DNA of 64,000 bases from Escherichia phage LQ5, in the sequence record OR677401; one strand, given 5' to 3'. This document shows positions 20,837-27,038 of this stretch, one piece after another. The notes under the pieces are model-generated. The model was not told the origin of the DNA. It did not search any database and saw nothing but the letters and a program-made list of their open reading frames with translations. Positions within the stretch are counted from its first letter, which is position 1; each line of letters begins with the position of its first letter. The position numbers and the translations under genes were made by a program.

Positions 20837-21519
20837 TTAAACACACCGTATATAAAGTAACCAATAAATTGAATGGTAAAATTTATATCGGTGTGCATAA
20901 AGAAACCAAACGCCATGACCATTATATGGGTTCAGGTAAGTTAATTAAGAAGGCTATATTAAAACATGGTATAGAGAATTTTGAAAAAGAAATTCTCTTT
21001 GTTATGGATTCCCAAGAGGAGGCCTTTGATAAAGAGCGAGAACTCGTTAACGAAGAATTTGTTTCAGACCCGAATACTTATAATTTGGTTGTTGGCGGTA
21101 AAGGTGGACTTGGTAAGAAAATATCTGAAGAACATAAACTTGCTATAAGTAAATCTAAATTGGGTATTCCACGACCTGATAGTGTTTGTAAAAAAGTTTC
21201 TATAACAAGAAGACTTAGAAATATACCTTCACCAAATAAAGGTATTAATCTTACCGATGCACATCGAAAAGCTCTAAGTAAATCCAGAGCAGGTAAGAAA
21301 GGACCTAAAATGCCTGATAGTACAAGAGCTGCTCTTCTTAAGGCAAATACAGGACCTAGGCCACAATCTTTTAAAGACTTATACAAAAAGAAATTGCTTA
21401 TCGATGGAATATGTTATGATTCATGTTCTGAAGTGGCTTCCAAATTCGGAATATCCAATAGTTTGGTTAGTTACAGATTAAAAAGCGATAAGTGGACTGG
21501 ATGGAAATATCATGATTAA
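20833..21519 (+). CDS. Seg-type GIY-YIG homing endonuclease with NUMOD3-like repeats
   Basis: N-terminus VYKVTNKLNGKIYIGV (GIY...YIG); downstream repeats ISEEHKLAISKSKLG / TDAHRKALSKSRAGKKG / STRAALLKANTG; AT-rich. Confidence 0.7.
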   Translation: MIKHTVYKVTNKLNGKIYIGVHKETKRHDHYMGSGKLIKKAILKHGIENFEKEILFVMDSQEEAFDKERELVNEEFVSDPNTYNLVVGGKGGLGKKISEEHKLAISKSKLGIPRPDSVCKKVSITRRLRNIPSPNKGINLTDAHRKALSKSRAGKKGPKMPDSTRAALLKANTGPRPQSFKDLYKKKLLIDGICYDSCSEVASKFGISNSLVSYRLKSDKWTGWKYHD

Positions 21520-22165
21520 GATTCGTATGCCACCAAACAATAATCGTATGGTGAATGGTAAGAGCGTGTATTCTTTATATTTGCAACTTAAGCATCACTT
21601 CAATGCCAAATACGACGTTATCAAATATAACTGGGTCATGCGAATCTCTGATACGGCTTATCAAAAACGTCGTGACAAATATTTCTTTGAGAAATTGAGT
21701 GATAAATACACTTTGAAAGAGCTTGCTCTTATCTTCATGAGTAACTTGGTGGCTAACCAAGACGCATGGATTGGCGACATCAGTGATGCTGACGCCTTAG
21801 TCTTTTACCGAGAATATATCGGTAGACTTAAAAGAATAAAACAAGTTTTTGAGGATGATATCAAAAACATTTATTATTTTAGTAAGAAAGTGGAAGTCCA
21901 AGCGCTTTCTGAAATTTTTGATTATAATAAAAAAGTTAACTCGAGCTATATTTTTAAGCTCCTTCAATCGAATGTTATTTCATTCGAAACGTTTATTTTG
22001 CTTGACAGTTTTCTCAATATAATTGATAAGCATGATGAACAGACCAACGATTTAGTATGGTCTAAGTATTCAACTAAATTAAATGCTTATAAGAAAATTC
22101 TTATAATAGATGCTGTAGAGGCAAGAAAATTATTCATTGAGACTATTAAGAGTTGTCAATTTTGA
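21512..22165 (+). CDS. 59: gp59 helicase-loading protein
   Basis: 217 aa, same length as T4 gp59; long near-identical blocks (GKSVY.LYL..K.H.N.KYDVIKYNW.MR.SD.AYQKRRDKYFF.KLS.KY.LKELALIF.SNLVANQDAWIGDISDADALVFYREYIGRLK). Confidence 0.93.
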   Translation: MIKIRMPPNNNRMVNGKSVYSLYLQLKHHFNAKYDVIKYNWVMRISDTAYQKRRDKYFFEKLSDKYTLKELALIFMSNLVANQDAWIGDISDADALVFYREYIGRLKRIKQVFEDDIKNIYYFSKKVEVQALSEIFDYNKKVNSSYIFKLLQSNVISFETFILLDSFLNIIDKHDEQTNDLVWSKYSTKLNAYKKILIIDAVEARKLFIETIKSCQF

Positions 22166-22782
22166 ATATAGTTTATTGGCTAGAATTTAGTCAACGTATC
22201 AAAGCCAAAACACCTCCCTATTATTATATCGGGTCTAAGCATGATTGCTTAATTAAAAATGGTGTTATAATTGATTCACGTAACAAAGAATATTGGTCTT
22301 CGTGTAAACAACCACGATTTATCTCTGCTTTGTCTGAGCGTCCTAAAGTTAAAGTTCTTCATGTATGCGAAGATGTTTTAACTGAAGAAGAATTTTACCA
22401 TAATCATTATGATGTGGTTAAATCACCCTTATTCTTTAATAAGGCAATGGCTAAAGGGACTTTCAAATCCTGTTTGAAAGGTAAATCCAAATCTGAAAGC
22501 CATAAACAAAAGATGAAAGAAAGTTCTCATCTTAAAGGTAAAGAGCCATGGGAACATCCTAATGCTATAGCAAAAGGTACCCATTTAGTGTGGAAAAATG
22601 CTAAAGTCTTTTATGACTGGTATATAGGCCCACATGAAACTACTAGATTAGGTCCGAAGATAATGTCTCGTGAAACCGGTTTAGCCTGTTCTATAATGAC
22701 AGGACATTCAATGATAAATAAATTTAAATCAGGATGGAATCCTCATCTCGATATTAAATTTAATGAATTTGCTTCAAACTGA
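22153..22782 (+). CDS. putative Seg-like homing endonuclease (degenerate GIY-YIG, NUMOD-like motif)
   Basis: N-terminus IVYWLEF...YYYIGS; basic GKSKSESHKQKMKESSHLKGK segment; sits in the 59-32 interval where T4 carries segG. Confidence 0.45.
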   Translation: MSILNIVYWLEFSQRIKAKTPPYYYIGSKHDCLIKNGVIIDSRNKEYWSSCKQPRFISALSERPKVKVLHVCEDVLTEEEFYHNHYDVVKSPLFFNKAMAKGTFKSCLKGKSKSESHKQKMKESSHLKGKEPWEHPNAIAKGTHLVWKNAKVFYDWYIGPHETTRLGPKIMSRETGLACSIMTGHSMINKFKSGWNPHLDIKFNEFASN

Positions 22783-22886
22783 GGGTGATATAATTACCCT
22801 CTGGAACAAACCTAGTTATCAAGGTAAATGTGGTAACACCAACTGTTAATAATTAATTAATTAATTAAATAAATAAGGTAAATAAT
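22783..22886 (+). promoter_or_regulatory. gene 32 5' leader: AU-rich (UUAA/UAAU)n tract with upstream GGG...CCC hairpin, candidate gp32 autogenous translational operator
   Basis: gggtgatataattaccc hairpin followed by ttaataattaattaattaattaaataaataagg before the gp32 ATG. Confidence 0.5.
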
Positions 22887-23792
22887 ATGTTTAAACGTAA
22901 AGACCCTTCCCAACTGGCTGCTCAACTGTCTGCAATGAAAGGTGGTTCTTCTTTCTCTTCCGATGATAAAGCTGAATGGAAATTGAAAGATGACAACGGT
23001 GTTGGTACTGCGGTAATTCGTTTCCTACCTTCGAAAAACGAAGAAAATCCATCCCCATTCATTAAGCTCGTTAACCACGGCTTCAAGAAAAACGGTCAAT
23101 GGTACATTGAAAACTGCACGTCTACTCACGGTGATTTCGATTCTTGTCCTGTATGTAAATACATGAACCAGAACGATACCTTTAATACTAATAACGCCGA
23201 ATACAAACTGATGAAACGTAAAACTTCCTTCTGGGCTAACATCCTTGTTATTAAGGATAGTGCAGTGCCTGCTAACGAAGGTAAAGTGTTTAAATTCCGT
23301 TTCGGTCAGAAAATTATGGATAAAATCAACCAGATGGTTGAAGTTGATACTGATATTGGTGAAGTGCCGGTTGACGTAACATGTCCGTTTGATGGTGCGA
23401 ACTTCGTACTGAAATCTAAGAAAGTTGGCGACTTCAAAAACTACGACGATTCCAAATTCATGGGTCAGTCTGAAATTCCTAACATCAATGATGAAGCTTA
23501 CCAAGCTAAATTGATGGAAGAAATGCACGACCTTTCTAAACTGCTCGATTTCAAATCATTCGAAACTAACGAAGCTAAGTTTAAGAAAGTTGTTGGTACA
23601 GCTGCTCTTGGTGGTGCTGCCGCTAAAGCTTCTGCAGCCGCTGATAAGATTGGTGATGACCTGGACGCATTCAGTGCAGACCTTGATGCATATGACTCCA
23701 AACCATCTACACCGACTCGTTCCACTACTCCTGAGCCGTCAGTAAGTCCTTCTGATGACGATGGTCTGGACGACCTGTTAGCGGGTCTATAA
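22887..23792 (+). CDS. 32: gp32 single-stranded DNA-binding protein
   Basis: 301 aa, same as T4 gp32; near-identical over most of its length (GFSS.DK.EWKLK.D..G...[10 protein letters not shown]....[29 protein letters not shown]...; C-terminal DDLLAGL). Confidence 0.96.
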
Positions 23793-23808
23793 GTTATTGA
23801 TTTATAAT

Positions 23809-23833
23809 GGGAAGACTTCGGTCTTCCCTTTTT
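23809..23833 (+). terminator. rho-independent terminator after gene 32
   Basis: GGGAAGAC-UUCG-GUCUUCCC + U5. Confidence 0.75.
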
Positions 23834-23844
23834 GGCATTTAATG

Positions 23845-23873
23845 GTTTACAATGCCTTTAAACATGATACTAT
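23845..23873 (+). promoter_or_regulatory. T4-type early promoter (repeated promoter/leader cassette)
   Basis: gtttac, 17-nt spacer, TGATACTAT. Confidence 0.6.
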
Positions 23874-23902
23874 AGACCTATCAACTACATGAGGAAATAA
23901 AA

Positions 23903-24289
23903 ATGGAAATCGGTAAAAAATACGAACTTCGCCCTGAGCGTATCAAAGCTTTTATTAATATCACCCCTATCAATAATAACGATATGGTGGATATTATCCA
24001 AGACAATGGTGGTTGGTTCGAAGTAAAGGATACGATGACCTCGGATGGGGATAAATTTGTAACTAAAATCAAATGTGCGAATGGTAAGATTTTTAGTGCA
24101 GACGGGACACTAGAGGAATATTTTGAATTGCATGAAGATGAGTTCTATTGCTTCCGTGAATATGGTGAACAAGCTGATGAACCTGACACCCCTGTTACTA
24201 AGGCAGGTGTGACTCAAATCCATTGCATTGTCACCGAACAGAACGTCGACCAAATCATTGAACTTTTGCAAAAAACTTTTAAGGCCTAA
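23903..24289 (+). CDS. hypothetical protein (frd.x region; paralogue of 24902..25279)
   Basis: 128 aa; shares ...EYFEL.E.EF..F.E.......PD..T......V........I.L.K.TF... with the 125-aa ORF. Confidence 0.5.
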   Translation: MEIGKKYELRPERIKAFINITPINNNDMVDIIQDNGGWFEVKDTMTSDGDKFVTKIKCANGKIFSADGTLEEYFELHEDEFYCFREYGEQADEPDTPVTKAGVTQIHCIVTEQNVDQIIELLQKTFKA

Positions 24290-24290
24290 T

Positions 24291-24551
24291 ATGACTAAAG
24301 ATGATTTCCTGGATGCAGTAGAAAAAGCCAGTGAGAAATTTGAAGTGATGGGTGTACGAGTTCATAAAGACCGAAATTATGGGCTCGATATCCAAACGTA
24401 CTCGTTATGGCTTGTAGGTGAACATAGTATTGTAACCACTTTAGTTATGGGTGTTGATGCACAACCTTTACTGGTTAAATTCAGAAGTATGGAAAAAGCT
24501 ACCAAAGAAATGATTAAACTTGGTAAATGGCTTGATAAAATTCAAAAATAA
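24291..24551 (+). CDS. hypothetical protein
   Basis: Track ORF 24228..24551; ATG at 24291 overlaps upstream stop (TAATATG). Confidence 0.45.
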   Translation: MTKDDFLDAVEKASEKFEVMGVRVHKDRNYGLDIQTYSLWLVGEHSIVTTLVMGVDAQPLLVKFRSMEKATKEMIKLGKWLDKIQK

Positions 24552-24553
24552 AT

Positions 24554-24582
24554 GTTTACAACACCTTTAAACATGATACTAT
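24554..24582 (+). promoter_or_regulatory. T4-type early promoter (repeated cassette)
   Basis: gtttac, 17-nt spacer, TGATACTAT. Confidence 0.6.
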
Positions 24583-24614
24583 AGACCTATCAACTAATGA
24601 GTGAGGAAAATAAA

Positions 24615-24842
24615 ATGGCTAAGGTTAATATTGATATCGTTGATTTTGAATACACTTACGAAGTTATCCGTAATCGTTATCCTTCTTTGAGTATGACTTA
24701 CATTAAAGATACCCAATTCTTTAGTATTCAAATTGAAGTCCAAGGTCCTCTTGAAGACCTTACCCGCTTTATGCAAAATGAATATTGTGACGGTATGCAT
24801 GCTGAAGACGCTAAATTTTATATGGGCTTGATTCAAGCTTAG
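24615..24842 (+). CDS. hypothetical small protein
   Basis: Track ORF 24597..24842; ATG (MAKVNIDIV...) after GAGGAAAATAAA. Confidence 0.45.
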
Positions 24843-24901
24843 TATACAAACCAACGGGAACATGATAATATGTTCCCTCAACAAAAAATGAGGAAATTAA
24901 A

Positions 24902-25279
24902 ATGATGGAAACTGGTAAATTTTACGTATTGGACCCTGCTGCTAAAAAACAATTCGTCGCTGGTAGTCCTGATGATAATTATAATTCATGCATGGTCAAG
25001 TTGATGGAACAACACGGCAATTCCTTCAAAGTTCTGGATATGTGTTATATTGAAGGCAATTATTTTGTTGAAAAAGTTGAAATGAAAGATGGCACCATCC
25101 TGAATAGTATGGGTGGCGCTGATGAGTACTTTGAACTCGCTGAATGGGAATTCTGTCACTTCCTGGAAGTTGATGGCGATGCTCCTGATGTTGATACCCA
25201 AACCATTCATGTGCAAGTCAATCACAAAAATGCCGCTGAAGTCATTGCACTGATTAAAGCGACTTTTGATATTCGGTAA
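24902..25279 (+). CDS. hypothetical protein (paralogue of 23903..24289)
   Basis: 125 aa; see paralogue. Confidence 0.5.
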   Translation: MMETGKFYVLDPAAKKQFVAGSPDDNYNSCMVKLMEQHGNSFKVLDMCYIEGNYFVEKVEMKDGTILNSMGGADEYFELAEWEFCHFLEVDGDAPDVDTQTIHVQVNHKNAAEVIALIKATFDIR

Positions 25280-25285
25280 AAAGTA

Positions 25286-25315
25286 GTGTACAGCCAAATG
25301 GGGCTATGATATAAT
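25286..25315 (+). promoter_or_regulatory. early-type promoter with inverted repeat (TGGGGC/GCCCCA) bracketing the -10 TATAAT
   Basis: gtgtac -35-like, 18-nt spacer, TGATATAAT. Confidence 0.5.
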
Positions 25316-25355
25316 GGCCCCATACTGAGATAACAACTAAACACCGGAGAATAAA

Positions 25356-27038
<1,683 letters not shown>

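Follow-up and report, generated by a model that had tools for sequence, protein, structure and literature searches.

Two FRD2-family early genes from separate lineages in the gene 32-frd interval of a JS98-like T4-type phage

Between gene 32 and frd, Escherichia phage LQ5 carries two small open reading frames (ORFs), here called A and B, that resemble each other and are separated by two other small ORFs. The locus raises the question of how such a pair arose: by duplication and divergence of an early gene under selection for a host-interaction function, as the original prediction from the nucleotide sequence proposed, or by the assembly of genes with separate histories. To place the pair, we analyzed a stretch of 64,000 nucleotides of this phage (sequence record OR677401, one strand, 5' to 3'), referred to as the window. 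Its DNA is 92-95% identical to that of JS98-like T4-type phages (genus Dhakavirus), with phage LHE83 as the top match.

Family membership and map of the locus

Both ORFs were confirmed on the + strand at the positions given in Table 1. Pairwise comparison of A and B with BLASTP gave 45 identities over 128 positions (35%; 53% positives; E = 1e-20) across essentially the full length of both proteins, and the G..F.V.D, EYFEL.E.EF..F.E, IH..V...N and TF motifs from which paralogy had been proposed are visible in the alignment, which lies well above background. Each protein spans positions 1-95 of the 96 in the Pfam profile PF03197 (FRD2), with scores of 132.2 bits for A and 113.8 bits for B at a curated gathering threshold of 29 bits, and both cover phrog_622 from end to end. 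These scores exclude chance similarity of A and B and identify both as members of the T4 Frd.2 family (Pfam FRD2 / phrog_622). A is 92% identical to JS98 frd.2b and 63% identical to T4 Frd.2 (NP_049852), while B is 89-91% identical to JS98 frd.2a and 95% identical to the second copy of LHE83. By these identities, A is the sequence orthologue of T4 Frd.2 and JS98 frd.2b, and B belongs to the JS98 frd.2a lineage; the correct labels are Frd.2 for A and Frd.2a lineage for B.

The family is small and phage-restricted, comprising 48 clusters at 50% identity in a profile search of 1.84 billion representatives. By tblastn, FRD2 was present in 887 phage records at 966 places, with at most about 9% of the records carrying two detectable copies, and B-type genes of at least 60% identity were found in 66 records. 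The pair itself is already known, since frd.2a and frd.2b, both labelled T4 frd.2-like, are annotated in JS98 and JS10. A literature search found no paper on the two-copy state, the term "frd.2a" being matched only falsely, to "frd.2am". Within the window, a search of 580 six-frame ORFs with an FRD2 profile built from 71 sequences gave no third FRD2 copy (next best E = 0.059). NCBIfam and PADLOC yielded no match to A, B or o232, and a PDB sequence search with A returned noise only (E of 0.35 or worse). Giant bacterial proteins considered as relatives (P0097, P0103, P0107 and P0111) were rejected because their scores were sums of weak matches to repeat domains of the SH3_3 or RTX/HCBP-related kind. 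Weak FRD2-profile matches to repeated SH3_3/RTX-related proteins fit an SH3-like barrel and are not evidence of homology.

Table 1. Features of the gene 59 to nrdA region, in window coordinates
Feature	Position	Strand	Evidence or remark
Gene 59	21512-22165	+	PF08993 and PF08994
SegG-type homing endonuclease	22153-22782	+	phrog_7504, 1.6e-69; without Pfam match; between genes 59 and 32
Gene 32	22887-23792	+	position and matches to annotated gene 32 of related phages
Gene 32 terminator-like hairpin, GGGAAGAC-TTCG-GTCTTCCC and T run	23809-23828	+	terminator scan; kept in centroid fold
Early-promoter cassette, 48-nt direct repeat copy 1	23840-23887	+	TTTACA-16-TACTAT at 23846-23873; putative driver of A and o232
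ORF A (FRD2, 128 aa)	23903-24289	+	PF03197, 1.2e-38
o232 (86-aa ORF, equivalent to JS98 orf232)	24291-24551	+	phrog_4423; without Pfam family
Early-promoter cassette, 48-nt direct repeat copy 2	24549-24596	+	TTTACA-16-TACTAT at 24555-24582; putative driver of frd.3
frd.3 (75 aa)	24615-24842	+	PF05798, 2.5e-37; GAGGAAAATAAA ribosome-binding site precedes ATG
Cassette before B	24843-24877	+	promoter-like TATACA-N17-TAATAT at 24843-24871, G at 24842; TG at extended -10
ORF B (FRD2, 125 aa)	24902-25279	+	PF03197, 6.3e-33
Cassette before frd.1	25287-25323	+	TGTACA-17-TATAAT at 25287-25315; hairpin 25298-25323 spans -10, z = -3.31
frd.1 (DUF5417)	25356-25595	+	PF17438, 1e-35; downstream limit of shuffled interval
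frd, td, nrdA	downstream of frd.1		position; frd and td also through matches to annotated genes of related phages

The gene order 59, segG-like, 32, A, o232, frd.3, B, frd.1, frd, td, nrdA agrees with the T4 map, and the location of the pair in the 32-frd interval, with early-type expression signals, had been predicted correctly. The two intervening ORFs are unrelated to FRD2, as had also been proposed, and were identified as o232 and frd.3, of which the former starts one base past the stop codon of A (TAAtATG). For frd.3, the program-called ORF begins at 24597; annotated homologues and the conserved ribosome-binding site instead point to the ATG at 24615, which is probably the true start and gives a protein of 75 aa, as in T4. 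A search of Rfam with E up to 1 over the region 22000-26500 gave no match.

T4 SegG drives co-conversion of markers around gene 32. The SegG-type endonuclease of the window is missing in JS98 and IME08 and has only 30% identity to the Bp7 endonuclease in the same slot. Adjoining gene 32 as it does, it may promote co-conversion or exchange of the 32-frd interval.

Predicted fold and candidate functions

AlphaFold2 models of both proteins, computed from the 71-sequence alignment, are confident (pLDDT 86 for A and 89 for B). Both run through the same succession of elements: strand 1 (about 6-9), then two helices, strands 2-4 (about 39-47, 50-58 and 63-65), a short helix and strand 5 (about 84-86), after which come an acidic linker of low confidence (92-99) and a C-terminal helix. 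In both models an SH3/Tudor-like barrel of five strands at the N-terminus is joined by the acidic linker to a small C-terminal unit of strand and helix. The linker of B is 7 residues shorter than that of A, and the C-terminal unit is clade-specific, with 9 of the 12 clade-switch positions falling within the last 27 residues. Searching with B, Foldseek retrieved GoF (9.5e-6) and T4 MotB.1 (2.3e-4). The fold was published in 2025 for T4 Frd.2, GoF and MotB.1 as that of an LSm-like family of Tevenvirinae (Kim et al. 2025, PMC12152347), and on their models A and B fit this barrel superfamily, with a bent antiparallel barrel, a flexible linker and a C-terminal domain.

The authors of that study favor an LSm-like, RNA-related role (PMC12152347). 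Applied to this locus, A and B would be LSm/Hfq-like RNA chaperones that alter the stability or translation of phage or host mRNA, each with different RNA targets (Kim et al. 2025). The predicted five-stranded bent barrel at their N-terminus does resemble GoF and MotB.1, and the GoF(D25Y) variant stabilizes a reporter mRNA; however, wild-type GoF and MotB.1 have no such effect, and Frd.2 is absent from the proteins reported in the reporter assay (PMC12152347). In the models, moreover, two helices between strands 1 and 2 replace the Sm N-terminal helix. Strong acidity marks all FRD2 copies (pI 4.2-4.7; net charge -4 to -23), and only one conserved column is basic (K5) versus six that are acidic. 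Charge and conserved columns argue against RNA binding without excluding it, and because of the acidity and the single conserved basic residue we favor protein binding over RNA binding. The RNA-chaperone explanation is in our view unlikely, direct RNA binding by A and B is similarly improbable, and protein binding is put forward as a tentative reading.

Under the protein-binding reading, A and B would be made within minutes of infection and would bind a protein of the host or the phage by way of the barrel and the acidic-aromatic segment YFEL-E-EF--F-E, which is the most conserved part of the family. They would act as accessory, conditionally useful take-over factors, and A and B would differ in partner or specificity through their clade-specific C-terminal unit. 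Plating is normal for T4 frd.2 amber mutants (PMC12152347). Alone among T4 genes of unknown function, frd.2 was called "Fit" in CRISPRi-ART, with a marginal result (score 0.83, p = 0.027, versus 3.29 for gene 32). The host-interaction role that had been suggested is plausible for a non-essential early T4-type protein.

Lineages, gene layouts and exchange at early-gene cassettes

A neighbor-joining tree divides the FRD2 family into two groups. One of them, the A group, comprises T4 Frd.2, the A copies of Dhakavirus, a Gelderlandvirus A copy and a deeper branch of 134-aa (Mosigvirus-type) proteins; the other, the B group, comprises copies from Dhakavirus, Gaprivervirus and Gelderlandvirus. A is 61-63% identical to the T4 and Gelderlandvirus copies and B is 66% identical to the Gelderlandvirus copy, whereas A and B share only 35-37%. 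Since the identity between the two types is lower than that within a type between genera (61-66%), the split is older than the divergence of the genera and does not reflect a recent local duplication.

Layouts were compared by mapping eight reference genes onto 30 related loci. A-type and B-type genes assort independently among these loci, which carry either type alone or the two together and show at least nine gene orders. The layout of the window (32, A, o232, frd.3, B, frd.1) recurs in LHE83 and IME341. Both types are also present in JS98 and IME281 (32, B, A, o232, frd.3, frd.1), in MN01 (32, A', frd.3, B, o232, frd.1) and in Gelderlandvirus UTK0003 (frd.3, B, A, frd.1). IME08 and QL01 have 32, A, o232, frd.3, frd.1; Bp7 and VR26 have 32, B, o232, frd.3, frd.1; T4 has 32, frd.3, A, frd.1; and two Tequatrovirus loci have 32, frd.3, A, o232, frd.1. 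A Gaprivervirus-like genome (L012) has 32, a barrel-only FRD2 gene, B, o232, frd.3, frd.1.

The barrel-only gene of L012 (3678-3935) encodes 85 aa and adjoins the full B copy, and a metagenomic contig (L026, 641-1480) carries a tandem pair of an A-like and a B-like gene. Together, this gene and this tandem pair support the view that the domains are separable and that the two lineages began long ago as a tandem. The A|B or B|A tandems of JS98, UTK0003 and L026 are compatible with an original tandem duplication in a remote ancestor, so that "duplication" is mistaken only when it means a recent event at this locus.

Wherever o232 is present in these layouts, it directly follows an A-type or B-type FRD2 gene on the 3' side, joined to it by a TAAnATG stop-start junction, and a functional pairing of FRD2 and o232 is possible on this sequence evidence. 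The o232 protein is 95% identical in the two Tequatrovirus loci (L020 and L024), whose flanking genes are only 55-76% identical, which suggests that o232 moved recently by horizontal transfer along with the 3' end of the A gene. The block that one Tequatrovirus locus has in common with the window starts at 24216 and includes the C-terminus of A together with o232.

The intergenic regions of the interval follow a common cassette design: a stop codon, GTTTACA, 16-17 nt, a -10 box (TAcTAT or TAATAT, often inside a hairpin), ATCAACTA, GAGGAAAtAAA and the ATG. The gene 32 terminator hairpin lies at the 5' edge of the first cassette, upstream of A. The two copies of the 48-nt repeat are 92% identical and bracket the module of A and o232. 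They precede A and frd.3, so the expectation of an early promoter cassette before each member of the pair holds for A in the form of the repeat but not for B. What precedes B is a different, promoter-like cassette, near-identical to one conserved in MN01, whose site scores 8 of 12 and thus falls under the 9-of-12 threshold of the scanner. It contains the hairpin GGGAACAT-GATAAT-ATGTTCCC (24856-24877; -11.9 kcal/mol; z = -3.45), which spans the -10 box. The cassette before frd.1 is of the same type as the o232-to-frd.1 cassette of MN01, and the cassettes before B and frd.1 make up a second subtype that is nearly identical to cassettes of Gaprivervirus MN01. The frd.3 cassette has no significant hairpin (z = 0.19), and the hairpin is degenerate in two of the four cassettes of the window. 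A generic promoter scan showed no enrichment in this region (10 sites found versus 11 expected), and the promoter argument therefore rests on cassette conservation rather than on the scan. The hairpins at 24856-24877 and 25298-25323 both enclose the -10 box of a promoter-like site. Judged from their sequence, such hairpins would serve as a promoter element in the DNA, and in RNA read through from upstream they would fold into a stable 3' hairpin or an attenuator.

In T4-type phages, PeSL (promoter-early stem-loop) elements have been shown to mediate the shuffling of modules and to form mini-circles (Arbiol et al. 2010, PMC2839356; Comeau et al. 2014, PMC4122927); in hyperplastic regions they border small non-essential ORFs, and the breakpoints of insertions, deletions and replacements fall at them (PMC2839356, PMC4122927). 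Colinearity of the window with JS98, IME08, Bp7, VR26 and MN01 breaks at intergenic cassettes or at start or stop codons. In Bp7 and VR26, B substitutes for A, with limits exactly at the promoter cassette on one side and at the TAAnATG junction to o232 on the other, and JS98 has B as an insertion separating this cassette from A. The B module is most similar to DNA of Gaprivervirus MN01, to which the frd.3-B block is 90% identical and the B-to-frd.1 cassette together with frd.1 92% identical. A breakpoint also falls inside A: its block 23913-24206 (barrel and linker codons) has 47-90% nucleotide identity to IME08 and LHE83, versus 97-100% upstream and 90-100%, mostly 97-100%, over the C-terminal codons and o232. 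On these identities, the A barrel is represented by distinct alleles exchanged at a domain boundary. From the breakpoints and comparative layouts we infer recombination at the cassettes. The 32-frd interval is a hyperplastic region of single-gene modules bounded by near-identical early promoter/hairpin/ribosome-binding cassettes of the PeSL type, in which homologous recombination between co-infecting T4-like phages would insert, delete, swap and reorder the modules.

Pairwise dN/dS was 0.13-0.27 for A and 0.08-0.27 for B, versus 0.00-0.09 for gene 32 and likewise 0.00-0.09 for o232. A and B are both kept as coding genes under purifying selection and evolve faster than their neighbors; gene-wide positive selection was not found in either by pairwise dN/dS among few sequences. 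These values bear on the alternative that frd.2 was duplicated in place recently in this phage lineage and that the copies then diverged rapidly, driven by positive selection in a host arms race. In its favor, two copies lie within 1.4 kb, each with its own promoter-like cassette, and FRD2 genes do evolve faster than gp32 and o232 (dN/dS 0.1-0.27 versus 0.00-0.09). However, dN/dS is well under 1, B-type orthologues are 66-95% identical in three genera while A and B share only 35-37%, and genomes with A only or B only exist. Synonymous divergence is raised as well in the divergent block of A (dS 0.65-0.87, versus 0.10-0.29 in gene 32), which points to different ancestry rather than to local acceleration. 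Phylogeny and layouts contradict a recent duplication, which we consider very improbable. "Duplication and divergence" in this genome is a misleading description of the pair, because the deep A/B split, the independent assortment, the gene orders numbering at least nine and the MN01-like B module together indicate cassette shuffling of two old lineages; the pair is not evidence of fresh duplication or of positive selection. That chance or composition produced the similarity, or that one ORF is a decaying pseudogene copy, has nothing more than small ORF size in its favor and can be practically dismissed, given the E-value of the pair (1e-20), Pfam scores four times the cut-off, full-length ORFs conserved in many genomes under purifying selection, pLDDT of 86-89, and a spacing between ribosome-binding site and ATG in A and B identical to that of neighboring genes.

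As a whole, the locus is with high probability best explained as two anciently separated, intact FRD2 early genes held under purifying selection and brought together by cassette shuffling, with a putative accessory function. Natural phages with A only, B only or both on similar backbones, together with the constant FRD2-o232 linkage, provide handles for Frd.2 function. A more speculative and doubtful extension is that A, B and the always-adjacent o232 form a swappable specificity set, in which the hypervariable barrel alleles and the clade-specific C-terminal units would each recognize a different host factor or defense component. By analogy, one candidate target could be the RNA polymerase beta lobe, which is bound by CarD and the UvrD Tudor domain. 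If this were true, carrying both types would widen the host range, the 32-frd interval would be a counter-defense or host-range island, and the only T4 "Fit" gene of unknown function would gain a testable role.

Comparison with known systems

In their predicted architecture (N-terminal small barrel, linker and variable C-terminal part), A and B resemble the GoF/MotB.1/Frd.2 family (PMC12152347), and, in agreement with that study, the solved folds closest to them include FeoA-type SH3 barrels. The CarD N-terminal domain, the UvrD/PcrA C-terminal domain, the Mfd RID and FeoA barrels match at 7-17% identity with low scores typical of small barrels. No motif or known binding residues in common with RNA-polymerase-binding Tudor-like domains were identified, and the likeness to these is one of resemblance rather than membership. 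The pair also differs from Sm, LSm and Hfq proteins proper, for which an N-terminal helix followed directly by five strands (Sm1/Sm2 motifs) and a closer structural similarity to Hfq or Sm than to other barrels would be expected; A and B have two helices between strands 1 and 2 in place of the N-terminal helix.

The PeSL promoter consensus of the T4 group is TTTACW-N17-TAYWAT (PMC4122927). The window cassettes fit this consensus, are intergenic and combine a predicted sigma-70-like early promoter with a hairpin. They differ in that the hairpin usually spans the -10 box and is degenerate in two of the four. Having a promoter-like site with a stem-loop and lying at breakpoints, they would qualify as PeSL elements.

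The frd.2a and frd.2b genes of JS98 and JS10 (NC_010105 and NC_012741) represent the same two lineages as B and A; the JS98 pair is in tandem, whereas here o232 and frd.3 separate A and B, as in LHE83 and IME341. A shares with T4 Frd.2 its length (128 aa) and the 32-frd interval, and the early-promoter context applies to A and B alike. In T4, however, the single copy lies between frd.3 and frd.1, while here A directly follows gene 32 and the slot between frd.3 and frd.1 is filled by the divergent B type. With a known family, an annotated pair and a known mechanism of plasticity, the locus is a clean small example of T4-type early-gene shuffling.
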